Assembly: GCA_944393195.1 (NCBI GenBank) | Contig: CALXZG010000002.1 | Location: 33,646 to 97,645, forward strand | Source of the DNA: an uncultured Alphaproteobacteria bacterium | Lineage (GTDB): Bacteria; Pseudomonadota; Alphaproteobacteria; CAAHEQ01; UBA3637 | Direction: 5' to 3' | DNA: 64,000 nt | Shown: positions 13,795-60,300 of the stretch, one piece after another | How the letters are laid out: the number at the start of each line of letters is the position of its first letter | Position numbering within the stretch: position 1 is the first letter of the stretch | Notes under the pieces: generated by a model | Database searches by the model: none | The model's input: only the letters and a program-made list of their open reading frames with translations | Told to the model about the DNA's origin: nothing | Translations under genes and position numbers: made by a program

Positions 13795-15195
13795 TTAGGC
13801 CTTCATAATGCGCCACACGGGTCCCTGCGGCGTATCTTTTATGTCAATCCCTTGCGCAATCAATTTTTGCTTTAAGGCATCCGCCGTCGCCCAATCTTTG
13901 GCTAATCGAGCCGCCTGCCGTTGATCAATCAAAGCCTGTTGTTCCGGTGTCAGCACCGCTTCTTCTTCGGCCGGCAATAACGCTAAAACCGTATCAAAAC
14001 GCCGCATGACATCCGCTATCCGCGTCGCATCGGCCACACTTAATGCCGCAAAGTTTTTATTGACTTCCGTCATTAAGGTGAAAATTGCCGCCAAAGCTTC
14101 CGGCATATTTAAATCATCATCCAAACCGGCCTCAAAACCGGCTTCCGCCCGCGTCAAAGCATCATCCGTTCCGGCCCAACCAGCACCATTCGCTTCCCGG
14201 CTCAATCGCGTCATAAAGTTGCCCAGCCGATCAATCACACTTTGATTGCCGGCCATATTACTTTCCTGAAAATCCAAAACAGCCCGATAATGCGCCTTTA
14301 AAAACTCATATCGGATGGCTTCCGGGGAATATCCTTTTTGTACCAAATCGTTAACCGTGTAAAAATTATTGGCGGATTTAGCCATCTTTTTCCCGTTCAC
14401 CATCAAATGCGCATTATGCATCCAATAATTCACAAACTTTTCCCCATAAGCGCATTCGGATTGTGCAATTTCATTCGTATGATGCGGAAAGATTAAATCC
14501 ACCCCACCGATATGTAAATCAAACGGTTGGCCTAAATATTTGCGCGCCATGGCGGAACATTCAATCGACCATCCCGGCCGCCCTTTTCCGAAAGGCGTTT
14601 CCCAATAATTGTCCCCGTCACGCTCTTCCCAAGCTTTCCAAAGCGCAAAATCCTGCGCATCTTCTTTATCATATTCATCCGACAATCGCCCGTCTGCGTT
14701 GGCTAACAAAGACTGTGCTTCAATCCCGGCCATACGCCCGTATTCGGAAAACCGACTGATTTTAAAGAAAACATCTCCGCGCGCCGTTTGATACGCATAC
14801 CCTTTGTCCAATAATAATTGAATCAATTCAATCATAGCCGCAATTTCTTCGGTAGCCCGCGGAACAATATCGGGTTTACGAATATGTAACGTTGCAAAAT
14901 CCTTAAAAAAAGCTTCCGCATAAAAATCCGTAAACTCCCGCAACGATTTACCGGCCGCCCGAGAATCGCGAATGGTTTTATCATCGACATCCGTTAAGTT
15001 CATACAATACGTTACCCGATATCCTTTATACCGGAAATACCGATTGACCAAATCATAAAATACATATGCCCGCATGTTGCCGATATGCGCATAATTGTAA
15101 ATCGTCGGTCCGCAACCGTAAAAACGAATCTCTCCATCTCGAATGGGTTTAAACTCTTCTTTACGATGCGTTGCCGTATTGTATATTTTTAACAT
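13795..15195 (-). CDS. cysS: cysteinyl-tRNA synthetase
   Basis: 466 aa. Contains the class I motifs HIGN and KMAKS. Confidence 0.95.
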   Translation of the reverse strand: MLKIYNTATHRKEEFKPIRDGEIRFYGCGPTIYNYAHIGNMRAYVFYDLVNRYFRYKGYRVTYCMNLTDVDDKTIRDSRAAGKSLREFTDFYAEAFFKDFATLHIRKPDIVPRATEEIAAMIELIQLLLDKGYAYQTARGDVFFKISRFSEYGRMAGIEAQSLLANADGRLSDEYDKEDAQDFALWKAWEERDGDNYWETPFGKGRPGWSIECSAMARKYLGQPFDLHIGGVDLIFPHHTNEIAQSECAYGEKFVNYWMHNAHLMVNGKKMAKSANNFYTVNDLVQKGYSPEAIRYEFLKAHYRAVLDFQESNMAGNQSVIDRLGNFMTRLSREANGAGWAGTDDALTRAEAGFEAGLDDDLNMPEALAAIFTLMTEVNKNFAALSVADATRIADVMRRFDTVLALLPAEEEAVLTPEQQALIDQRQAARLAKDWATADALKQKLIAQGIDIKDTPQGPVWRIMKA

Positions 15196-15273
15196 ATCCT
15201 TCTCCTTTACGGCTCACCATATCATATTCTTGCTTATATTGCAATGCTTTTTCCCCACACCGGCGTTTGTTTT

Positions 15274-15560
15274 TTATCCACATCAACCAGCCCATCTTAT
15301 ATAAAAAAATAAATATAGTATTGGTATGTCCCTGTGGATAAGTGGTATATCTTTTTTATTTTTTGCTTGACATACGATTTGATTTTGAACGAATCGGTAA
15401 TTTAATGTATTTTTTTGCGATAAACAGGTCTATTTTTCCGAATCGTCAGCCGATTTTTGCTGTGTGGATATCAGACTGGATAAAAAAGGATATCTTTTTC
15501 TGATTTTTTGTTAACGCCTATAATAAGGCGACTTATCCCCAATATGCATACTTATCCACA
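15274..15560. promoter_or_regulatory. DnaA-box cluster; candidate oriC or DnaA-regulated region
   Basis: Perfect TTATCCACA/TGTGGATAA boxes at 15274-15282, 15333-15341 and 15552-15560. One-mismatch boxes at 15463-15471 and 15533-15541. An AT-rich run lies at 15297-15322 and two GANTC sites at 15391 and 15440. The region sits between divergently transcribed cysS and dnaQ. Confidence 0.5.
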
Positions 15561-21731: not shown

Positions 21732-21899
21732 AGTGTAACAATTTAATGTTCCTTTTTTTGTTATACTTTTTGCACCTTACACGACTTTTAACTAAATGAA
21801 CAGGAACCCTTTATAATATAAATATTTTCTTCTTGCTTTACCTTTCTTTTTGTGATACATAATTTTATAACATTTTAAGGAACATTAAATTGTTACACT
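21732..21899. repeat. perfect 23-bp inverted repeats (21732-21754 and 21877-21899) flanking a 122-bp AT-rich segment; part of the gene-less copy of the pilin-family 5' module
   Basis: agtgtaacaatttaatgttcctt and aaggaacattaaattgttacact are exact reverse complements. The enclosed segment is homologous to 51436-51533, which is upstream of gene 51585. Confidence 0.85.
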
Positions 21900-26094: not shown

Positions 26095-27483
26095 GTGGTT
26101 AAAAGGATGTTTTATTTTTTTTCTTGTCTTTTTCGGAAAATAGGATATACTAAAATTATGTCCACTATTTTTAAAAAGGTTTCACATATGATGCATAAAA
26201 CGGCTTGTCAAAATGGGATGGCGGCGGGTTCCCGTCATTTATTTAATCGAAAAGAGCGGTGCGGCAAGGTATTTTTTACCAATCGGGATGCTATGCCGGT
26301 GGCTTTTGTTCAAGTTTCCCTGCGTGATTTAAAGGGTGGGCCGGCATGTTTGCCGGTGCCAGCTTCCGTTGTTCGGTCGTATATGATGAAACTGGCGCAA
26401 AACGGGGCTTTGACGGAAGCGGGATTTTTACCGAGTGAGGTTGAAGCGGCGCGGTGTCGCGGAATTGTCCCGACCGGGTATCAGGTGGAACAAATTGTGC
26501 CGATGGGGTGTGGCGCTCGGCCGACATTGAATAATATTTGTTTAATGGAGTCGGGGTTACAGACGTATTTGACACGTCATTTATGGCGATTGTTACATCG
26601 GGATTTAGTGGCGGAAAAGGCCGCCTGTGAGAAAAAAGGCCGACCGTATGAGCAAATTTCCGTCGGATTATCGGGATTTCGGGCGGTGATGCGGGTCACG
26701 GATTGGACGCGGGTATTGGATAAGCCTTTGTTACGGCGGGCGCGGTTAGTGGAAGAGCGGTTAAAGGTACAACAATTAAAAGCAATGCCTTTGGCGGTTG
26801 TGGCAACGGCCGACGGGGTTTTGTTGGCGCATCCGGCTTTTATGTCCATGAATGCCCAAGACGGATATCTGAAAAATGCGACGGGAATGGTTCCGGCGGT
26901 TGTGAATGTTCGCTTGGCTTCGGCGCATGAGCGGCAAGCGATTAAAGCGGAATACGGACAGGTTCGGCGGGATATTATTCGGGCTTTCGCCGCGCGGGGA
27001 CAACTGCCGGAAATTCGGCCGAATAAACAACGGGTTATTGCCCAAACAGGGTGGTTGCCGGATCGGTATCCGTACACATGTCATCACATTGTACCGCGGG
27101 CTTTGGGCGGTAGCAATGAAGCGGGAAATGTGTGTTGGTTGCCGGCGGCGGAGCATGCGGATTTACATGTCATTGTCAACAAATATCAGCACGAATTAAA
27201 AACGCGGTATGCCGATTTGGCAACACGGGGGCTGGCTTATTTGGTGTTACCGATTCCGGCTTCATTCCAAGGGCCACAATTGCGGATCATATCGCCGGTG
27301 GATCAGCGGTTGGTTTCAATTGCGGAATTGGCAGATGCGGTTTTTGCCTGTCATCCGGCGGTTAATATCCGAAAGAAGAAAGGACACTTTGCGTCTCAGG
27401 CGGTTAAACGGCGGTTATTGGTGGCCAAATATCAACGTCGTGTTCGGCGGGGCGGTATGGATGTATCGCGTGTTCATATATAG
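26095..27483 (+). CDS. basic protein with two HNH-like units (one intact HNH motif)
   Basis: The start is uncertain (ATG at 26158 or 26188 is possible). The intact motif YPYTCHHIVPRALGGSNEAGNVCWLPAAEHADLH lies at about 27067-27168. An earlier unit (VPTGYQVEQIVPMGCG...) has lost the His residues. The protein is Arg-rich. Confidence 0.65.
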   Translation: MVKRMFYFFSCLFRKIGYTKIMSTIFKKVSHMMHKTACQNGMAAGSRHLFNRKERCGKVFFTNRDAMPVAFVQVSLRDLKGGPACLPVPASVVRSYMMKLAQNGALTEAGFLPSEVEAARCRGIVPTGYQVEQIVPMGCGARPTLNNICLMESGLQTYLTRHLWRLLHRDLVAEKAACEKKGRPYEQISVGLSGFRAVMRVTDWTRVLDKPLLRRARLVEERLKVQQLKAMPLAVVATADGVLLAHPAFMSMNAQDGYLKNATGMVPAVVNVRLASAHERQAIKAEYGQVRRDIIRAFAARGQLPEIRPNKQRVIAQTGWLPDRYPYTCHHIVPRALGGSNEAGNVCWLPAAEHADLHVIVNKYQHELKTRYADLATRGLAYLVLPIPASFQGPQLRIISPVDQRLVSIAELADAVFACHPAVNIRKKKGHFASQAVKRRLLVAKYQRRVRRGGMDVSRVHI

Positions 27484-27492
27484 GAGGGGCAC

Positions 27493-41490: not shown

Positions 41491-42357
41491 TCATCGACAG
41501 AGGGCAAATAGTAGTAGTCGACGTCCCAAACGGTTGAACCCGATCGCACCTGAACTACTACCCTGTATATAATACGAACTACATCCACTCAACTTCGTAC
41601 TTGTCCAATAAGGCTTACCTGTCGTGTGTGCCCATCCCGAACAGCTACCATAATAACTGTTTGCCTTAGCCGCCGCCAATTCTTCCGCCGTACACCCGTC
41701 CGTTAGCGGTGCTAAACTCTTCCCAAGTGCTTGACAGAAGTTCTCTGCTGCATGATAGGACATAGATCCTGTTGATGTTGTGCATGTTGTTCCGTTAATC
41801 TCTACTGTTGCAGTACTCATATTTGTGCACGTCCCAATCACCACATCACAACTATAAGTATTTTTACAATATTGATTATCCCCCGTACAATCATCATTTG
41901 TCATACATTTATTTGTTCCTAATGCGGATACACAGGTACCTATACCGGAACTATATTGACACTTCTCGTCTTTTCCACAACATTTGTCACCGCATGTAAC
42001 GCCATCCGGACAATAGACGCAATAACGAGGATCGTATCCCCCGATTTGAGCACCTGTACATCTCTCACATGTATCCTCTATATCTCCCGTATGCGTTTCG
42101 ACTGGATTTCCTTCTGTTGGACAAGCAATACAGGACGAAGACGCATATTTATTATAAAACTCACCTTCTTCACATTCCGGATAAAAATCTGTCACACATT
42201 CCCCTGTTGATAATCGATATTCATTCTCCCCACACTCTTGTTCTTCCGACTCACCATCTCCATCCCCTGAAATTTGGGAGCCGACCAACGCATTATGGAA
42301 AGCAAATAATATCTCGTTATCCTCTTGCTTTGTTTTCCCTTTTATGATACACAACAT
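41491..42357 (-). pseudogene. 5'-truncated member of the pilin-like/Cys-rich/lectin-like family (candidate silent cassette)
   Basis: The ORF begins inside the family 5' module. It joins the family alignment at EILFAFHNAL (EMLFAFANTL in the intact genes). It therefore lacks the RBS, the prepilin leader and the whole N-domain. The Cys-rich and YHAAENFC...ALCR parts are intact. Confidence 0.7.
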
Positions 42358-42596
42358 CTATAACAAAAAAATGTACATTAAATTGTTACACTTCATTTGA
42401 CATCTGTTTGATTAATAATCTATATGTGAACTTCCCCAAAATCAAAAAAAGTAAAATAGGGATAGATTCGCGGACTAATGCCGTGAATAATGTTTTTGTG
42501 TGGTGATATGTAAAAACGCCCTGTTATCACAAAAACTTTCCTGCCCGACAAAAAAGCGTCCCGAAACGGAACGCTTTCTTAACATATCGGCTACGT
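42358..42596 (-). promoter_or_regulatory. family 5' module including the recA terminator; inverted copy of 58005-58346
   Basis: The reverse complement aligns with the region downstream of rpsT apart from a roughly 110-nt repeat insertion there. It contains the palindromic site gtgtaacaatttaatgtacatttttttgttatag (42358-42391). Confidence 0.75.
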
Positions 42597-43631
42597 CTAT
42601 TCGCCATCCGCCGGTACGCCCTCATCATTATCCAACATTTGTTGTGATAAATCCTTGGCATCGTTGCGAATAATTGCCTCAACTTCATCGGCCATAGCCG
42701 GATGCGCCTTTAAATAAGCCCGCGCCGTTTCTCGCCCTTGCCCGATTCGCTCCCCACGGCAAGAAAACCAAGCACCGGCCTTTTCCACAACGCCTGCTTT
42801 AATCCCTAAATCCAACAATTCACCGGTTTTGGAAATTCCTTCACCGTACAGGATATCAAAGTCAACCGTTTTAAACGGCGGTGCAACCTTATTCTTAACA
42901 ATTTTAACCCGCGTCTGATTCCCGATCGTATTGTCCCGATCCTTAATAGCCCCGATCCGCCGAATATCCAATCGAACGGAAGCATAGAATTTTAACGCAT
43001 TACCGCCCGTCGTTGTTTCCGGACTACCGAACATAACCCCTAATTTCATCCGAATCTGATTGATGAAAATGACCAAGGTATTCGCACGCGCCACCGACGC
43101 CGTAATTTTACGCAAAGCCTGACTCATCAGCCGCGCCTGTAACCCCATGTGAGAATCCCCCATTTCGCCTTCCAATTCGGCTTTCGGAACCAACGCCGCC
43201 ACCGAATCCACAACCAAAACATCCAACGTTCCCGACCGTACTAACGTATCCGCGATTTCCAACGCCTGTTCCCCCGTATCCGGCTGAGAAATCAATAAAT
43301 CATCAATCTTAACCCCCAACTTTTTGGCATACGACGGATCCATGGCATGTTCAGCATCGATATAAGCACATACCCCGCCTTTTTTCTGAGCCTCTGCCAC
43401 CACATGCAAAGCCAACGTTGTTTTTCCCGAGCTTTCCGGCCCATAGATTTCCACAATCCGTCCGCGTGGCAGACCACCGATCCCCAAAGCCATATCCAAC
43501 CCCAAAGATCCCGTTGAAATAGCCGGAATTTCCATCGCGTTTTCCTGTTGCCCCAAGCGCATAATGGATCCCTTGCCAAACGCCCGTTCAATCTGTGCCA
43601 AAGCGGCTTCAAGTGCTTTTTCTTTTTCCAT
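42597..43631 (-). CDS. recA: recombinase RecA
   Basis: 344 aa. Contains Walker [10 protein letters not shown] and canonical RecA sequence throughout. Confidence 0.98.
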
Positions 43632-45877: not shown

Positions 45878-46280
45878 CGTCACCCCTTATTATTAGTCCA
45901 TCATCCCCTATAATTCTACGTCATCCCCGACCCCATAAGTAATCCGTCACCCCCGACTTGATCGGGGGTCTCATGACCATCTTACCCCCTTTTAAATTCC
46001 AACATCCGCTTGCCGGCGGAGACTCCCGCTGCCTTGGCGCGCGGTGTTTCATTGCCTTACGCGAAAAAACAATTCACCGGATTGTTTTTTCTTGCGCGGT
46101 ATCCTTGCGTAAGCGAGGATCTCATGACACGCACTCCATCCCTTTATAAAAAACCCGCACGGCCACCCCCCGCGGGGAAAGGCGGGGCGGCCATAATGAC
46201 CTCTTTGCCCGTGTCGGGGCTCTTAAATGCCCCGACACAAATAATTAAATAGGTAAAGGAGATATTAAAAAATCAGAACC
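45878..46280 (-). repeat. 3' flank plus repeat array of the family, inverted copy of 59742-60255
   Basis: The reverse complement is colinear with the region after gene 58482-59741: ttttttaatatctcctttacctatttaattatttgtgtcggggc, then the roughly 130-nt unit gatcctcgcttacgcaagg...ggcaagcggatgttggaat, then catgagacccccgatcaagtcggggg and GATGACGG modules. Confidence 0.8.
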
Positions 46281-46550
46281 TTAGCGACACAGGGCGTTGA
46301 CGGCGCCGCCGCTCCAACCGACAGACCCGACCGCGCCTGACCAGGGATATACATAATACGAAGCACATCCACTCAATTTTGTTGCTGTCCAATAATGGTT
46401 AGAAAGACTACTATTCAACCATCCACTACAACTACCATAATAATTATTTGCCTTAACTGTTGCTAATTCTTCCGCCGTACACCCGTCTGTCACCGATACC
46501 AAACTCTTCCCGAGGGCTTGACAGAAATTAACTGCTGCATGATACGGCAT
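46281..46550 (-). pseudogene. isolated C-terminal (lectin-like) fragment of the family
   Basis: Encodes PYHAAVNFCQALGKSLVSVTDGCTAEELATVKANNYYGSCSGW...GAVGSVGWSGGAVNALCR. Family homology stops abruptly at about 46550. Confidence 0.8.
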
Positions 46551-47090
46551 ATAATTCGTTGGTTCCGGGGGAGAGGGGAGAAGGTAATGACGAATCCGAA
46601 GTTGAAGTGTGTGAAGAGGGTGAATATCGGTTATCGACAGGAGAGTGTGTGATAGATTCACATCCGGAATGTGGTGATGGAGAGTTTTATAATAAATGGA
46701 TATCTTCTTCCTGTATTGCGTGTCCAACGGAAGGAAATCCGGTCGAAATTAGTGTATCGGATGTGGAAGATAGTTGTGAAAAATGTGCGGGGGCGCAGTA
46801 TGGTGGGTATTATCCTAATTATTGCGTCTATTGTCCATCCGGTGTTGTGTGTGGTGATCAATGTTGTGGGGAAGGACAAATGTGTCAATATAGTTCCGGT
46901 ACCTATACCTGTGTATCGGAATTAGGTGACGGCGAATGTTGGACAAATGATGATTGTGCCGGAGCCAATCAATATTGTCAAAATGGTGGAAGTTGTGAAG
47001 TGACGATTGGGACGTGTGAAACGATCAGTAGTACAGCTGTGATAATTAACGGAAAAGAGTATACGGCTTCAACGGATTATGTATCTTACC
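46551..47090 (+). pseudogene. isolated middle (Cys-rich) fragment of the family on the opposite strand
   Basis: Encodes NSLVPGERGEGNDESEVEVCEEGEYRLSTGECV...EYTASTDYVSYQAA. It abuts the minus-strand C-terminal fragment head-to-head at 46550/46551. It ends at the YHAA-equivalent point, where it joins a repeat unit through the shared string ggcagcgg. Confidence 0.8.
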
Positions 47091-47232
47091 AGGCAGCGGG
47101 AGTCGCCGCCGGCAAGCGGATGTTGGAATTGGAATGGAGTAAGATGGTCATGAGACCCCCGATCAAGTCGGGGATGACGGATTACTTATGGGGTCGGGGA
47201 TGACGGACTAATGATAAGGGAATGGCGGAAAA
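47091..47232 (+). repeat. distal repeat block (ggcagcgggagtcgccgccggcaagcggatgttggaattgga...catgagacccccgatcaagtcggggatgacgg...)
   Basis: Same orientation as 60117-60230 and inverted relative to 45905-46025. Confidence 0.8.
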
Positions 47233-51380: not shown

Positions 51381-51584
51381 ATCAAACAGATGTCAAATGA
51401 AGTGTAACAATTTAATGTTCATTAAAATGTTATAAAATTATGTATCACAAAAGTGAAAACAAAGCAAGAAGAAAATATTTATATTATAAAGAGTTCCTGT
51501 TCATTTGGTTAAAAGTCATGTAAGGTGCAAAAAGTATAACAAAAAAGGGAACATTTTTTTGTTATAGTTGAAAAGGAGCGATAA
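51381..51584 (+). promoter_or_regulatory. 5' control region of pilin-like gene A
   Basis: Conserved block atcaaacagatgtcaaatgaagtgtaacaatttaatgt (possible ATGTCA-17-TAATGT promoter). Palindromic site 1 lies at 51402-51435 and palindromic site 2 at 51534-51567, the latter directly before the AAAGGAG RBS. Confidence 0.5.
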
Positions 51585-52994
51585 ATGACTGAAACAAAAA
51601 ACAAAAACGGGAAAAGTGGTGTGTATCAAAATAGTGATTTAGGGGCATCGTGTGTGTGTCATAAGACCCCCGATCAGGTCGGGGATGACGGTTTAACAGT
51701 AGGGAGTGCGTGTTCAAAGATCCCCGCTTTCGCAGGGATGACGGGTAGTAACCGCGGGGAGCGGGGACGGAGCATGGTTGAGATGTTGGGCGTTCTGGCG
51801 GTCATGGGCGTATTGTCGATCGGCGGTGTGGCCGGGTATCGGTATGCGATCGATAAAATGAATGCGAATGACATTATCAATGAAGTGAAAAAAAGAGCCG
51901 TGACGGCGAGTCAACAACGCATCTTGGGACACGATATTAATTTATCGGAATACGGGGATAATGGTCGGATTAAGGGAATTCATGCCGTTACAGCGACAAA
52001 CGATTATGCGGGGGATAAAGGGTTCTTTGCGTTGACGGTATCAAATATACCGCAACGGGTATGCGATGACATTCTGAAACAGGATTGGAATATGCCGGTG
52101 GAAACAGCGGTCGGAGGTGTTGTGGTTGATGATGATACAGCCTGCGCCGCCGGGGATAATGAAATGTTGTTTGCGTTTGCGAATACGTTGGACAGCTCTC
52201 TGGTTCCGGGAGAAGGGGGAGAAGATGACGGGGATGAAGAGGAAGTACAGGAATGCGCCGAGGGTGAATATCGGTTATCGACAGGGGAATGTGTGACGGA
52301 TTCACATCCGGAATGTGGTGATGGGGAGTTTTATAATGGACTCACGGATTCTTGTACAGCCTGTCCGACGGAAGGAAATCCTGTCCATATTTATTCGTCG
52401 GATATGGAAGATACGTGTGAAAAATGTACGGGGTCGCGGTATGGTGGACCTTATCCCAGCTATTGTGTCTATTGTCCGGATGGTGTTACCTGTGGTGATC
52501 AATGTTGTGGGGAAGACGAAATGTGTCAACGCGATACAAGTTCTTGGCCATATACATTTACCTGTGTCTCTACATTAGGGGAAGGAGAATGTTTGACGAA
52601 TGATGATTGTGTAGATAATCAATATTGTCGGAATAGTTATGGTTGTGAAGTGACGGTTGGGACATGTACGGATATTAGTAGTACGCCGGTAGAGATTAAC
52701 GGAACAGAATACACAGCGTCAACGGGTTCTATGCTGTATCATGCGGCGGAGAATTTCTGTGATGCGCTTGGGAAGCGTTTAGCACCGGTGACAGACGGAT
52801 GTACGGCGGAAGAATTGGCAGCGGTTAAAGCAAATGGTTCAGGTAGTTGTTCGGGATGGGCACAGACGACGGGTGAGCGTTATTGGACAGCAACCAAATT
52901 AAGCGGATGCGCTTCGTATTATGTATGGAGTAGTAGTTCAGGCGCGGTCGGGTCTGTCGGTTGGAACGGCGGCAACTACGCCCTGTGTCGCTAA
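51585..52994 (+). CDS. modular type-IV-pilin-like protein with Cys-rich repeats and lectin-like C-terminal module (copy A; leader expanded by a repeat insertion)
   Basis: 469 aa. The class III signal-like core G-RSMVEMLGVLAVMGVLSIGGVAGY lies at aa 61-85. It is followed by a conserved head domain, an acidic linker, a region with about 25 Cys, and a C-terminal YHAAENFC...W...ALCR. Confidence 0.8.
   Translation: MTETKNKNGKSGVYQNSDLGASCVCHKTPDQVGDDGLTVGSACSKIPAFAGMTGSNRGERGRSMVEMLGVLAVMGVLSIGGVAGYRYAIDKMNANDIINEVKKRAVTASQQRILGHDINLSEYGDNGRIKGIHAVTATNDYAGDKGFFALTVSNIPQRVCDDILKQDWNMPVETAVGGVVVDDDTACAAGDNEMLFAFANTLDSSLVPGEGGEDDGDEEEVQECAEGEYRLSTGECVTDSHPECGDGEFYNGLTDSCTACPTEGNPVHIYSSDMEDTCEKCTGSRYGGPYPSYCVYCPDGVTCGDQCCGEDEMCQRDTSSWPYTFTCVSTLGEGECLTNDDCVDNQYCRNSYGCEVTVGTCTDISSTPVEINGTEYTASTGSMLYHAAENFCDALGKRLAPVTDGCTAEELAAVKANGSGSCSGWAQTTGERYWTATKLSGCASYYVWSSSSGAVGSVGWNGGNYALCR
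51612..51770 (+). repeat. 159-nt in-frame insertion of palindromic mini-repeats inside the leader of gene A
   Basis: Absent from copy B (MTEIKMENG-LSMVE). It contains agacccccgatcaggtcggggatgacgg and agatccccgctttcgcagggatgacgg, both found in intergenic copies elsewhere in the window. Confidence 0.8.
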
Positions 52995-53170: not shown

Positions 53171-53300
53171 AGGGAGTGAGATGGTCATAAGATTCCCGCT
53201 TTCGCGGGAATGACGGACTAATAATAAGGGATGACGGGATTATAATGGGATGCATTAAAAGCCCCCCCCCGAAACAAGTCCGGGGGTGACGAGGTTATCA
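53171..53300. repeat. cluster of GATGACGG-type palindromic mini-repeats
   Basis: agattcccgctttcgcgggaatgacggactaataataagggatgacgggattataatggg ... ccccccccgaaacaagtccgggggtgacg. Confidence 0.75.
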
Positions 53301-58038: not shown

Positions 58039-58481
58039 GTTGGGCAGGAAAGTTTTTGTGATAACAGGGCGTTGTTATTTTTCCGTCATCCCTGCGCAGG
58101 CGGGGATTTTTGGACGCACAACCACACCTTTAAAAGACCCCCGATCAGGTCGGGGGTGACAGGGTACTTGTGGATCGGGGATTTTTTTACATATCGCCAT
58201 ACAATAGAAACGGTATTCACGGCATTAGTCCGTGAATCTGTCCCTATTTTACTTTTTTCTGATTTTGGGTCACTCCCAATCTAAATGATTTATCAAACAG
58301 ATGTCAAATGAAGTGTAACAATTTAATGTACCTTAAAATGTTACAGTTTTTATAACATAATCAGGAATGCGATGCAAGTCCTTTTTTATTAAGAATTAAT
58401 CGGTTATCGATTTGTCATTTTTTGTCCAAACTGTAACACAAAAGGGTACATTTTTGTGTTACAGTTCGAAAGGAGTATTAA
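58039..58481 (+). promoter_or_regulatory. 5' control region of pilin-like gene B
   Basis: Conserved module 58183-58346, with a roughly 110-nt mini-repeat insertion at 58072-58182. Site 1 lies at 58313-58346. Site 2, ctgtaacacaaaagggtacatttttgtgttacag, lies at 58431-58464 (13-bp arms), followed by the AAAGGAG RBS. Confidence 0.5.
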
Positions 58482-59741
58482 ATGACTGAAATCAAAATGG
58501 AAAATGGTCTGAGTATGGTTGAGATGTTGGGTGTTCTGGCGGTGGCGGGTGTCCTGTCGATTGGCGGTGTGGCCGGATATCGGTATGCGATTGATAAAAT
58601 GAATGCGAATGACATTATCAACGAAGTGCGGAAACGGGCCGTGACGGCAAGTCAACAACGCATCTTGGGACACGATATTAATTTATCGGAATACGGGGAT
58701 AATGGCCGGATTAAAGGAATTCATGCCGTTACAGCGACAAACGATTATGCTGGGGATAAAGGGTTCTTTGCGTTAACGGTATCAGCAGTCCCGCAACGGG
58801 TATGTGATGACATCCTGAAACAGGATTGGGCAATGCCGGTAGAAACCGCCGTCGGTGGTGTTGTGGTCGATGATGATACCGCCTGCGCCGAAGGGGATAA
58901 TGAGATGTTGTTTGCGTTTGCGAATACGTTGGATAATTCGTTGGTCCCGGGAGAAGGGGGAGGAGAGAACGGAGATGAATCGGAAGTACAGGAATGCGCC
59001 GAGGGCGAATATTGGTCATCAAGTTTAGAAACATGTGTGACAGACCCGCATACGGAGTGCGCGGATGGGGAGTTTTATAATGGATATACAAACTCCTGTA
59101 CGGCTTGTCCAACAGATGGAAATGCCGTTCCAAATGATTCATTAGATATGGAAGATACGTGTGAAAAATGCGTAGGGTCGCGGTATGGTGGATCTCATCC
59201 CGGCTATTGTGTCTATTGTCCGGATGGCGTTACCTGTGGCGATCAATGTTGTGGCGAAGGACAAATGTGTCAACGTAGTGGTCCTTATCCGTATACATTT
59301 ACCTGTGTCTCTGCATTAGGGACAAATGAATGTATGACGAATGATGATTGTACGGGAGCAAATCAATATTGCCAGAATGATTCTGGTTGTAGTGCGACAA
59401 ATGGGACGTGTCAAACGATCAGTAGTACGACGGTGACGATTAACGAAAAAACATACACAGCATCGACAGATCGTATGTCGTATCATGCGGCAGAGAACTT
59501 CTGTGATGCGCTTGGGAAAAAATTAGCACCGGTGACAGACGGGTGTACATCGGAAGAATTGGCAGCGGTTAAAGCAAACAATTATTATGGCAGTTGCACA
59601 GGATGGGCACACACGACGGGTAGGTATTATTGGACAAGTACGAAGATAAGCGGGTGTCATTCGTATTATGTAAGCAATAGCAGTTCAGGCGCGGTCGGGT
59701 CTGTCCATCCGTTCGTCGGCTACCACGCCCTTTGTCGCTAA
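58482..59741 (+). CDS. modular type-IV-pilin-like protein with Cys-rich repeats and lectin-like C-terminal module (copy B, canonical)
   Basis: 419 aa. The N-terminus MTEIKMENG-LSMVEMLGVLAVAGVLSIGGVAGYRY has Gly at -1, Glu at +5 and a hydrophobic helix. The downstream architecture matches copy A. Confidence 0.85.
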   Translation: MTEIKMENGLSMVEMLGVLAVAGVLSIGGVAGYRYAIDKMNANDIINEVRKRAVTASQQRILGHDINLSEYGDNGRIKGIHAVTATNDYAGDKGFFALTVSAVPQRVCDDILKQDWAMPVETAVGGVVVDDDTACAEGDNEMLFAFANTLDNSLVPGEGGGENGDESEVQECAEGEYWSSSLETCVTDPHTECADGEFYNGYTNSCTACPTDGNAVPNDSLDMEDTCEKCVGSRYGGSHPGYCVYCPDGVTCGDQCCGEGQMCQRSGPYPYTFTCVSALGTNECMTNDDCTGANQYCQNDSGCSATNGTCQTISSTTVTINEKTYTASTDRMSYHAAENFCDALGKKLAPVTDGCTSEELAAVKANNYYGSCTGWAHTTGRYYWTSTKISGCHSYYVSNSSSGAVGSVHPFVGYHALCR

Positions 59742-60300
59742 GGTTCCCGCTTTTTTAATATCTCCTTTACCTATTTAATTATTTGTGTCGGGGCATTTAA
59801 GAGCCCCGACACGGGCAAAGAGGTCATTATGGCCGCCCCCGCTTTCCCCGCGGGGGTGGCCGTGCGCGTTTTTTATAAAGGGATGGAGTGCGTGTCATGA
59901 GATCCTCGGGTCAAGCCCAAGGATGACAGTTTTATAATAAGGGATTGTGTTAAAAGATTCCCGCTTGCGCGGGAATGACGAGATATTTATATGGGATGAC
60001 GTAGGAGGGGAGGAGTGAGGTGGTTGAAAGATCCTCGCTTACGCAAGGATACCGCGCAAGAAAAAACAATCCGGTGAATTGTTTTTTCGCGTAAGGCAAT
60101 GAAACACCTCGCGCCAAGGCAGCGGAAGTCGCCGTCGGCAAGCGGATGTTGGAATTGGAAAGGTGTGTGCGTCATGAGACCCCCGATCAAGTCGGGGATG
60201 ACGGATTACTTATGGGGTCGGGGATGACGGATTACTTATGGGGTCGGGGATGACGGGGTATTTATAGGGGGGGGTGACGGAGGCAGGGAACGAGGTGTGG
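59742..60300 (+). repeat. 3' flank and dense repeat array, including 2.3 tandem copies of a 26-nt unit at 60197-60256
   Basis: Contains the hairpin gtgtcggggc...gccccgacac, the roughly 130-nt unit at 60030-60160, catgagacccccgatcaagtcggggatgacgg, and tandem gatgacggattacttatggggtcggg units. Confidence 0.8.

Follow-up and report, generated by a model that had tools for sequence, protein, structure and literature searches.

A type IVb-like modular pilin gene with a lectin-fold end module and a hypervariable 3′ end in an uncultured alphaproteobacterium

Layout of the gene and spread of its family

We analyzed a gene of the forward strand that occupies positions 58482..59741 of a 64,000-nucleotide stretch of contig CALXZG010000002.1 (hereafter, the window) from an uncultured Alphaproteobacteria bacterium. 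The first-pass annotation of this DNA, made from the letters alone, had described the gene as coding for a pilin-like protein built of a head, an acidic linker, a cysteine-rich part and a lectin-like end module. The list of open reading frames (ORFs) returned the same coordinates, strand, length of 419 aa and sequence, and all four parts are present. Sequence comparison and structure prediction suggest that the product is probably a modular pilin of the type IVb class, most likely a minor or tip subunit acting as an adhesin. In the following features, confidence is given as the predicted local distance difference test (pLDDT) of AlphaFold2 models:

58482..59741, forward strand: modular type IVb-like pilin gene, 419 aa, ATG start (ORF listing)
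58482..58508, forward strand: leader peptide M1-G9, with predicted prepilin-peptidase cleavage after G9 (G-1/E+5 motif, variable leaders)
58509..58949, forward strand: pilin module, residues 10-156, with a hydrophobic alpha1N carrying E14, alpha1C and a beta-sheet head (AlphaFold2, Foldseek, homology to operon pilins)
58950..58994, forward strand: acidic Gly/Glu linker, residues 157-171, sequence GEGGGENGDESEVQE (low pLDDT)
58995..59417, forward strand: Cys-rich region, residues 172-312, with 19 invariant Cys in beta-hairpin modules, a predicted stalk (alignment, AlphaFold2)
59418..59738, forward strand: compact C-type-lectin-like end module, residues 313-419, with 5 Cys (pLDDT, Foldseek, profile)

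The N-terminus reads MTEIKMENG followed by LSMVEMLGVLAVAGVLSIGGVAGYRY, such that G9 stands at -1 and E14 at +5, with about 20 hydrophobic residues after them. The head, which reaches to about residue 156, contains the single cysteine pair previously ascribed to it (C108 and C135); the acidic linker is likewise found, at residues 157-171, and the C-terminal motif string reads exactly as had been quoted. The cysteine content of the middle part had been overestimated at about 24, since we counted 19 cysteines between residues 172 and 310, and 24 is reached only if the five of the end module (341, 355, 372, 392 and 418) are added. Across 56 aligned relatives, all cysteines and motif residues are invariant or at least 90% conserved. 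The linker differs in length among family members, and residues 151-169 were predicted with a pLDDT below 50. The window also holds family material that had been missed, namely a second full copy, two broken copies and one orphan promoter. Comparison of these copies gave a ratio of nonsynonymous to synonymous substitution rates (dN/dS) of 0.09 in the head, 0.2-0.3 in the Cys-rich part and 0.3-0.6 in the C-type-lectin-like domain (CTLD), with every cysteine retained; the low value of the head and the range of 0.2-0.6 in the other modules indicate that the gene is under selection.

A search of a 5.8-billion-protein collection identified 320 relatives, nearly all of them unnamed proteins from gut assemblies in ENA; apart from one JGI family entry that is automatically labelled 'PulG', the family is nameless. 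An exhaustive HMMER search with the head only, covering 1.84 billion representatives of clusters at 50% identity, returned 3,965, 783 and 44 of them at E<=1e-3, 1e-10 and 1e-30, respectively, and a scan of one genome per species gave more than 333 loci. All the loci listed belong to metagenome-assembled genomes (MAGs) of uncultured Alphaproteobacteria from human, ruminant, rabbit and other guts, and among these listed matches single MAGs hold 10-15 or more family loci. Each of the genome loci that we fetched likewise came from an uncultured gut or rumen Alphaproteobacteria MAG. Modular pilins with grafted modules had been presented as known but rare, and the present combination as an unfamiliar one. 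We found no paper on the family in the literature; within its clade it is not rare, with 783 clusters at 50% identity.

Approximately 160 N-terminal residues are conserved across the family and the remainder varies: the tails carry EGF/teneurin-like units, 45-aa six-Cys repeats, Thr/Glu-rich spacers, or a Cys-rich part with an end module. The fetched loci contain 108 ORFs with a head, namely 20 plain pilins and 88 modular proteins, whose tails have a median length of 267 aa and 9% Cys and reach 945 aa with 80 Cys; the CTLD end module is present in 30 of the 108. No part of these proteins passes a signature threshold, and the family has for this reason been invisible to the InterPro-based census of modular pilins.

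Pilin head, cysteine-rich stalk and lectin-fold end module

The N-terminus has the form of a class III signal, in which a polar leader runs up to the Gly at -1 and is followed by Glu at +5 and about 20 hydrophobic residues (MTEIKMENG, then LSMVEMLGVLAVAGVLSIGGVAGY). In about 89 family genes, the block G-R/L-S-M-V-E-M-L-G-V-L-A is essentially invariant, and the leaders that precede it are 5 to more than 50 aa long and unrelated in sequence. Furthermore, the second full copy in the window (51585..52994) tolerates a repeat-derived insertion of 52 aa (156 nt, in frame) only in its leader, as would be allowed if the leader is cleaved off.

Modelling of the full protein with AlphaFold2 from a 56-sequence alignment gave a pLDDT of 78.8, with a head composed of a long alpha1 helix (residues 22-61) and beta-sheet strands (83-147). 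The best PDB matches of this model in Foldseek were TcpA (8uhf; E 4.8e-3, probability 1.0), CofA 9iuf and 3s0t, and the second-best structural match overall, after TcpA, was the Bdellovibrio protein Bd2740 (8oks). Structure prediction and comparison of the 419-aa protein, which had been proposed as a check, recovered both a pilin alpha1 helix and a lectin-like fold.

The head is also homologous to pilins encoded beside type IVb assembly operons, as seen at loci L068, L075, L081 and L082 of related genomes. At L068, genes with Pfam matches to TcpQ, Secretin, PAP_PilO, T2SSE and T2SSF are directly followed by three pilins, which are short family members of 144-195 aa with the same N-terminus, two of them with weak Bundlin matches; the head shares 33% identity with one of the three across 146 aa (E 5e-21). 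At L075, an ATPase and platform gene pair lies 5 kb from a modular family member of 901 aa. The same type of operon is found at L081 and L082, followed by pilins that match PilS or Bundlin and begin ..GRSMVEMLGVLAIIGVLSIGGIAGY. A 298-kb contig carries this operon with a pair of pilins behind it, matching Pfam PilS and Bundlin, and a further, small ATPase; one of the pair begins ..QSGRSMVEMLGVLAIIGVLSIGGIAGY and is 56% identical to the protein studied here over 43 residues. The operon ATPase has thousands of relatives with 63-70% identity in gut Alphaproteobacteria, including entries from 'Proteobacteria bacterium CAG:495', and carries the JGI label bfpD. The earlier pilin assignment is borne out by the TcpA/CofA match and the homology to operon pilins, and can be sharpened to type IVb: on sequence and modelling, the head is a genuine type IVb pilin homologue.

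Several other observations were made at the operon loci. At L081/L082, which belong to abundant CAG-495-like genomes, two TrbC-like (conjugative pilin) genes lie ahead of the type IVb operon (1600-2800), and a small second T2SSE ATPase of 332 aa lies behind it (14312-15310), a candidate retraction motor. At L075, a 476-aa Cys-rich ORF without a pilin head (402-1832) lies upstream of the 901-aa member; it has no Pfam match and consists of C..C/CP repeat units followed by a beta-helix-like part rich in Gly, Asn and Thr.

A number of results weigh against a pilus subunit. Foldseek E-values were only about 5e-3 to 1e-1, which can be attributed to the query being a multi-domain protein, and the confidence of the AlphaFold2 model was low for residues 1-33. 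The Pfam N-methylation profile PF07963 (N_methyl) scored 12.4 bits, below its cut-off of 21.2 (E 0.12), as did TIGR02532 with 10.8 bits, its cut-off being 16.3 (E 0.36). Single-sequence searches of Pfam, NCBIfam and the PDB gave nothing beyond these sub-threshold matches, and no similar PDB sequence. The L068 operon pilin is likewise below the N-methylation cut-off, at 16.3 bits. The residue at +1, which is Arg in the family and Leu here, is unusual among pilins. No A24 prepilin peptidase was found in the window or the fetched loci by strict and relaxed motif scans, and a motif scan for the T2SS-E ATPase and reading of the ORFs found no assembly machinery in the window. The first-pass annotation had already noted that the window holds no pilus, type II secretion system (T2SS) or prepilin peptidase gene, and this held when all ORFs of at least 150-180 aa were read and motif scans came back empty. 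For this organism we infer that a pilus machine and a prepilin peptidase are present and that the protein is processed and assembled.

These results raise the possibility that the protein is not a pilus subunit and is instead a periplasmic or surface protein held in the inner membrane by an uncleaved signal anchor, or a T2SS pseudopilin, having retained no more than a pilin-like N-terminus. Such an interpretation would accommodate the window's lack of machinery, the sub-threshold N-methylation scores and the automatic pseudopilin label PulG of one relative, and a periplasmic location is described for some relatives of tip adhesins in Bacteroides (bioRxiv 2024.11.15.621889). Nevertheless, we consider it highly improbable, since the homology to pilins behind type IVb assembly operons extends over the whole head and not the helix alone, G-1 and E+5 are invariant though the leader drifts freely, and the hallmarks of the operons are TcpQ, PilO, Bundlin and PilS rather than GspC-M genes.

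The C-terminal module, residues 313-419, was predicted with a pLDDT of about 90. Its best structural match was the fibre-tip domain of Bdellovibrio Bd2740 (8oks; E 5e-3, template modelling score 0.52 normalized by the target), and its PDB matches in Foldseek included CLEC9A, Mincle, NKR-P1B, BDCA-2 and the LYVE-1 link module (probability 0.9-1.0); CTLDs of pox- and herpesviruses were matched in BFVD. A profile of 22 end-module sequences searched against PDB sequences retrieved only CTLDs (22 of 22 matches at E<=10, best E 0.036), langerin, PLA2R, CLEC4F and DEC-205 among them. The fold, the cysteine framework and the opening motif W..A..fC...g..L are those of a CTLD, in a compact form of about 105 aa that resembles link modules. 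The lectin-like fold first suggested by cysteine and tryptophan spacing is therefore supported by both the structural matches and the profile. At the same time, the module had no Pfam Lectin_C match, Pfam scans of the individual members of the CTLD alignment gave noise, and, as a further point against a sugar-binding adhesin, a reading of residues 313-419 found none of the EPN/QPD/WND Ca2+/sugar motifs. Sugar binding is not implied, given the lack of these motifs, and the term lectin here denotes a fold and not an activity.

The Cys-rich region, modelled alone, forms a string of beta-hairpins (pLDDT 84). Its resemblance to ephrin-receptor, TNFR and furin-like repeats could not be substantiated: a profile of the region matched no PDB sequence, the Pfam search gave no match to it, and Foldseek gave nothing significant, the best matches being Meckelin (E 0.19) and TNFR1 (0.5), followed by EGFR and GITR. 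Assignments to TNFR, furin-like, ephrin-receptor-like or EGF families were dropped in the absence of a significant profile or fold match, and the TNFR/furin-like wording is a fair description without being a family assignment. Recognizable teneurin-type EGF or Dickkopf_N units occur only in other family members; the last Cys-rich sub-module aligns with the part of one relative, P0107, that matches Pfam Dickkopf_N.

The variable modules may recognize other bacteria rather than an animal host, either in recipient selection of the R64 PilV type or in the recognition of partners or prey by a lineage with reduced genomes. In favour of this are the R64/Tcp-type machinery (Pfam families PAP_PilO, TcpQ and PilS), the position of the L081/L082 operon beside TrbC-like genes and the Bdellovibrio prey-recognition fibre tip (8oks) as the best single-domain match of the end module. 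In addition, Rs-D84, a related order of gut Alphaproteobacteria, has genomes of less than 1 Mb and a proposed partner-dependent lifestyle (PMC12306168), which would also fit. We regard this explanation as unlikely, since the window has no conjugation genes, the paralogs lie among housekeeping genes and not on a plasmid or integrative conjugative element, and CTLD folds bind many kinds of ligand.

Recombination among paralogs and the terminal codon run

We compared the gene with its alleles and paralogs in related strains. Syntenic alleles are only 78-93% identical within flanks of 99-100% identity. In the syntenic allele from another sample (L087), the flanks are 99-100% and the head and stalk 81-93% identical to those in the window. 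The CTLD shows one difference in 237 nt, followed by about 25 differences and a 3-nt indel in 59667-59726, after which identity resumes at GCC CTT TGT CGC TAA. The rpmJ locus shows 78-89% identity over the entire gene, between flanks that are again 99-100% identical. In a sliding search for the nearest neighbour, the closest sequence switched roughly once per 90 nt, with successive best matches to L086 (98%), c51 (98%), L088 (96%), L086 (96%) and L087 (100%). The gene is a patchwork of paralogs from other loci and other strains, and recombination between paralogs is therefore demonstrated; judged from sequence, these genes are mosaics. The following features describe the 3′ end:

59667..59726, forward strand: hypervariable block at the 3′ end of the CTLD (comparison with the syntenic allele L087)
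59712..59726, forward strand: run of NNC codons (N, any base), TTC GTC GGC TAC CAC, the core of the hypervariable block (codon comparison)
59727..59741, forward strand: invariant adenine-free 3′ anchor, GCC CTT TGT CGC and the TAA stop (all close paralogs, other strains)

The run, 5-9 codons long, is framed by a conserved GGT TGG on one side and the anchor GCC CTN TGT CGC on the other, and in eight close alleles and paralogs 48 of its 49 codons are NNC. Over the five codons next to the anchor, the pairwise difference between sequences was 0.69, 0.71 and 0.00 at positions 1, 2 and 3, compared with 0.18, 0.16 and 0.29 in the adjacent conserved block. Among NNY codons (Y, pyrimidine), those ending in C outnumbered the others by 37:6 within the run, against a ratio of 340:762 for the gene bodies (Fisher p = 3e-13). 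Second-position A occurs in 45% of the run codons, and in the paralog c51 the 36 constant bases around the run contain no adenine. In other MAGs the bias is bimodal, with 8-11 of 12 codons being NNC in 11 genes and 0-4 of 12 in the others. NNC runs were also observed at 52965-52979 and 46296-46313 (minus strand) and at the 3′ ends of the genes at L083 and L085-L088.

Changes from NNC to NNT are synonymous, so a frozen third base next to saturated first and second positions is unlike the outcome of mutation and selection. The pattern is real; as read from sequence, it is of the kind expected from adenine-specific copying of AAC codons by a diversity-generating retroelement (DGR). The CTLD is the usual DGR scaffold, and what we find at its C-terminus here is hypervariation of the adenine-templated type, from AAY to NNY. 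On this hypothesis, an AAC-rich template repeat would undergo reverse transcription that is error-prone at adenines and be copied into the last codons of the CTLD, which would give rise to new binding specificities, and the end module would be the variable region of a DGR or DGR-like adenine-specific templated mutator that acts in trans on dispersed paralogs, which is compatible with a pilin-adhesin.

The evidence on this point is divided. The NNC content of the run (48/49) and its position-specific differences (0.69/0.71/0.00) favour a DGR, as do the location of the run at the CTLD C-terminus, the adenine-free flanks in c51, the contrast between the block and the rest of the CTLD in L087 and the bimodal signature across MAGs. 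The 45% of second-position A resembles DGR variable regions in Bacteroides, in which A is the most frequent base at the positions that vary and in many cases makes up more than 50% of the second bases of codons derived from AAC, and a precedent exists in gut Bacteroides, where DGRs diversify the CTLD tip adhesins of type V pili (bioRxiv 2024.11.15.621889). On the other hand, motif scans detected no reverse transcriptase in the window or in approximately 2.2 Mb of fetched loci, which represent a few percent of the genomes; blastn found no template repeat in the window or fetched loci, a scan for AAY runs was empty, and pattern scans of IMG/VR and JGI metagenomes gave no match. The run is between 5 and 9 codons long and differs in length even inside a single genome, unlike what a single template repeat would produce, and adenines are conserved among the variable codons of the 60-nt block (codons AGC, AGT and TCA). 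Moreover, the second full copy in the window (P0009) and its ortholog from a different sample (P0121) have identical runs, so that no ongoing activity is visible at this gene. A DGR or DGR-like process is the leading hypothesis for the NNC run, and on these sequence patterns we hold it tentatively, as somewhat short of probable.

Paralog recombination also brings to mind antigenic variation of the pilE/pilS or shufflon type, in which headless copies of the gene in the window (at 41.5-42.4 and 46.3-47.2 kb) would serve as silent cassettes or invertible segments. The family material elsewhere in the window is as follows:

51585..52994, forward strand: full-length paralog P0009, 469 aa, approximately 80% identical (ORF list, alignment)
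51403-51434 and 51535-51566, no strand assigned: palindromes upstream of P0009 (motif scan)
~51609-51764, no strand assigned: in-frame 156-nt insertion resembling a miniature inverted-repeat transposable element in the P0009 leader, adding 52 residues (repeat comparison)
41491..42357, reverse strand: 5′-deleted copy directly downstream of recA, without a head and with Cys-rich part and CTLD intact (ORF list, alignment)
46281..47203, no strand assigned: rearranged headless fragments (ORF list, repeats)
46281-46559, reverse strand: CTLD fragment, its 3′ flank 96-98% identical to that of the 58-kb copy
46559-47134, forward strand: linker and Cys-rich fragment, diverging from the CTLD fragment
21734..21897 (to ~22030), reverse strand: orphan family upstream region with two palindromes and a conserved flank and no gene (motif scan)

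In support of silent cassettes, headless copies with intact frames are present in the window, one of them right behind recA, inverted repeats lie beside the 46-47 kb fragments and mosaic recombination of paralogs is demonstrated. Several findings make such a mechanism very unlikely. Only 4 of 112 family ORFs in the fetched loci are headless, and three of these four are in the window. Full copies are many, and each has its own promoter region and terminator. The relevant inverted repeats flank only a broken copy, no site-specific recombinase was noticed among the ORFs of the window, and the 46-kb modules lie head-to-head, an arrangement that a simple inversion cannot restore. The 42-kb headless copy has also lost the NNC pattern at its 3′ end. 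On the basis of the repeats, junctions and frequency of headless copies, a shufflon or silent-cassette system was rejected as a general mechanism.

The broken copies show how these loci are altered. The copy downstream of recA (window 41491-42600) retains about 200 nt of the family upstream region, with one palindrome (42359-42390) and a terminator-like hairpin that it has in common with the rpsT-downstream copy, and its NNC run has decayed. It carries a clean deletion from just past palindrome 1 to the codons for '..DNEILFAF'. The two 46-kb fragments diverge at approximately 46545-46560, where there is microhomology, and are bracketed by 115-nt inverted repeats at 45919-46034 and 47091-47205; their head-to-head arrangement may reflect a real rearrangement, decay or mis-assembly of the MAG. 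The orphan upstream region, which lies between an M23 peptidase gene and dnaE and carries the conserved ATCAAACAGATGTCAAATGAAG flank, looks like the scar of a lost paralog. The insertion in the P0009 leader is assembled from a pair of hairpin units, GACCCCCGATCAGGTCGGGGATGACGG and AGATCCCCGCTTTCGCAGGGATGACGG. Units related to these lie beside every copy (58090-58200, 59949-60265, 45912-45991, 47133-47215 and 53184-53236) and translate to recurrent 'IPAQAGI/PAFAGMT' peptides.

The regulatory elements around the gene are:

58314..58345, no strand assigned: upstream palindrome 1, TGTAACA-N18-TGTTACA (motif scan; conserved between copies)
58432..58463, no strand assigned: upstream palindrome 2, with 12-nt arms, ending 18 nt before the ATG (motif scan)
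59828..59864, forward strand: GC-rich hairpin and T-run, an intrinsic terminator (sequence scan)

With its own upstream region and the terminator at 59828-59864, the gene is a monocistronic unit. The motif TGTAACA-N18-TGTTACA has seven matches in the window, against 0.17 expected; the palindromes precede both full copies, the truncated copy and the orphan site, and those in pairs are about 118 nt apart. They may be operators for a dimeric regulator or hairpins in the 5′ untranslated region, and they may coordinate the expression of the paralogs or make it mutually exclusive. They are confined to this close lineage (3 of 89 family genes), and we accordingly dropped them as a family-wide feature.

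The window otherwise contains housekeeping genes (truB, rho, dnaE, thrS, trmD, ffh, galE, sodB, frr, uppS, recA, rph, grpE, ptsN, hpf, accA, rpsT, trxB and greA) and three tRNAs. In related strains, the paralogs also stand alone among housekeeping genes, often 330-490 nt past a ribosomal-protein gene: rpsT here and at L087, rpmJ at L083 and L088, and rpmB at L086. Between dnaE and thrS (26095-29265), two large adjacent ORFs of 462 and 590 aa carry repeated HNH-like motifs, YPYTCHH[IL]VP..GG.N...N. GC skew in 2-kb bins changes sign at about 16, 32 and 46 kb, tracking blocks of co-oriented genes, and its magnitude of up to +/-0.3 is large for a genome of 48% GC. At L083/L088 (1-6000), approximately 4 kb upstream of the rpmJ-locus paralog, there is a podovirus-like prophage or remnant with a T7-type portal, scaffold, capsid and Bbp19 genes and an S24 repressor. 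Related podovirus-like elements, about 18 kb long, occur frequently in IMG/VR (205 matches), and no reverse transcriptase was found in such elements in 80 viral loci.

Related systems, proposed mechanism and significance

The closest known systems in function and architecture include, besides PilV of R64 and the modular pilins of Streptococcus sanguinis, the minor pilins CofB, TcpB and LngB of enterotoxigenic Escherichia coli and Vibrio cholerae, which are believed to be located at the tip of the pilus, with a role in adhesion or secretion (PMC6048534, PMC5207764). They also combine a type IVb module carrying E5 with a flexible linker, extra beta-rich domains and a binding domain, and the machinery type of CofB/TcpB (TcpQ, secretin, ATPase, platform) matches that found in relatives of the present gene. 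In contrast to CofB/TcpB, there is no detectable sequence similarity, and Cys-rich hairpins and a CTLD are found here in place of a beta-repeat and an H-type lectin; the gene also lies outside a pilus operon, stands alone and has many paralogs per genome. The principle of grafting a ligand-binding module onto a small pilin module is already established (PMC8179133, PMC9934059), and the Streptococcus sanguinis proteins PilB, with vWA, and PilC, with a ConA-like lectin, follow it. Those proteins are type IVa-like and belong to a monoderm, whereas the present one is type IVb-like and from a diderm, and the expansion of paralogs and the hypervariability seen here were not described in the modular-pilin census. 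The present family differs from these systems in the types of module, the off-operon location, the large repertoire, the mosaicism and the NNC run.

Other systems share the variability. The PilV adhesin of the R64/IncI1 thin pilus, with its shufflon, likewise belongs to a type IVb system with PilO, PilS and TcpQ-type parts and is a minor pilin in which a constant N-terminus is joined to alternative C-termini that set specificity. PilV varies by Rci-mediated inversion at one locus, whereas many genes and homologous recombination are involved here, and the window contains no recombinase or sfx-like repeats. The DGR adhesins of type V pili in gut Bacteroides also come from a gut bacterium, end in a CTLD and show C-terminal NNC-type hypervariation (bioRxiv 2024.11.15.621889). 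They belong to another phylum and another class of pilus, made of lipoprotein strand-exchange subunits, and in Bacteroides a reverse transcriptase, Avd and a template repeat lie beside the target, whereas we found none of these and the length of the run varies. Neisseria pilE/pilS also generates a mosaic pilin gene by paralog recombination and has headless copies. Unlike in Neisseria, the donors here are mainly full genes that are independently expressed, headless copies are rare, and it is the grafted modules and not the head that vary. Finally, Bdellovibrio Bd2740 belongs to a family of fibres with exchangeable tips; these proteins are trimeric coiled-coil fibres and not pilins, and the identity is 15%.

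Taken together, the data suggest the following model for the modular pilin. After export, a prepilin peptidase would remove the nine-residue leader between G9 and L10, and the hydrophobic alpha1 helix with its E+5 would dock the subunit into a pilus. This pilus would be built by a machine of the Tcp/Bfp/R64 type (TcpQ, secretin, PilO, ATPase, platform and a small second ATPase), which is encoded elsewhere in the genome if this organism resembles the related MAGs in which it was found. Together, the acidic linker, which is flexible, and a Cys-rich stalk locked by disulfides would keep the CTLD clear of the filament, where it could bind a ligand, candidates being a glycan or protein on host mucus, on host cells or on other microbes. 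The gene would be one of a repertoire of stand-alone, individually promoted paralogs that share a head and differ in their C-terminal modules. Such a repertoire would diversify through the paralog recombination demonstrated above and through a process that randomizes the first two bases of the last 5-9 codons, as the codon pattern suggests.

It is possible, although doubtful, that type IVb pilus adhesins form a repertoire across the genome whose lectin-fold tips are rewritten by a DGR or DGR-like mutator acting in trans, in addition to gene conversion between paralogs. If this were true, type IV pilins would for the first time be seen to undergo retroelement-guided hypermutation. Should there be neither a reverse transcriptase nor a template, the run would instead reflect an unknown mechanism that randomizes codon positions 1 and 2 and freezes position 3. 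The NNC run would mean either that DGRs reach type IV pili and service remote targets or that there is a new mechanism of targeted diversification.

One of the main ways in which bacteria select their targets for attachment is through binding modules displayed on pili. Our interest is tempered by the fact that, for this organism, we infer the machinery, the processing, the localization and the ligand alike. The findings extend the modular-pilin principle to a lineage without cultured members, at the scale of 783 clusters at 50% identity. Read-level tracking of adhesin variation in metagenomes could use the conserved head and the anchors without adenine on both sides of the run as handles, and the isolated CTLD modules, as modelled, may be small disulfide-stabilized candidate binders for ligand screens. 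The rapid change of these genes inside near-identical genomes marks them as an interface under selection in the gut, and the selective pressure on the pilin genes would come from the host, from phages or from microbial partners.

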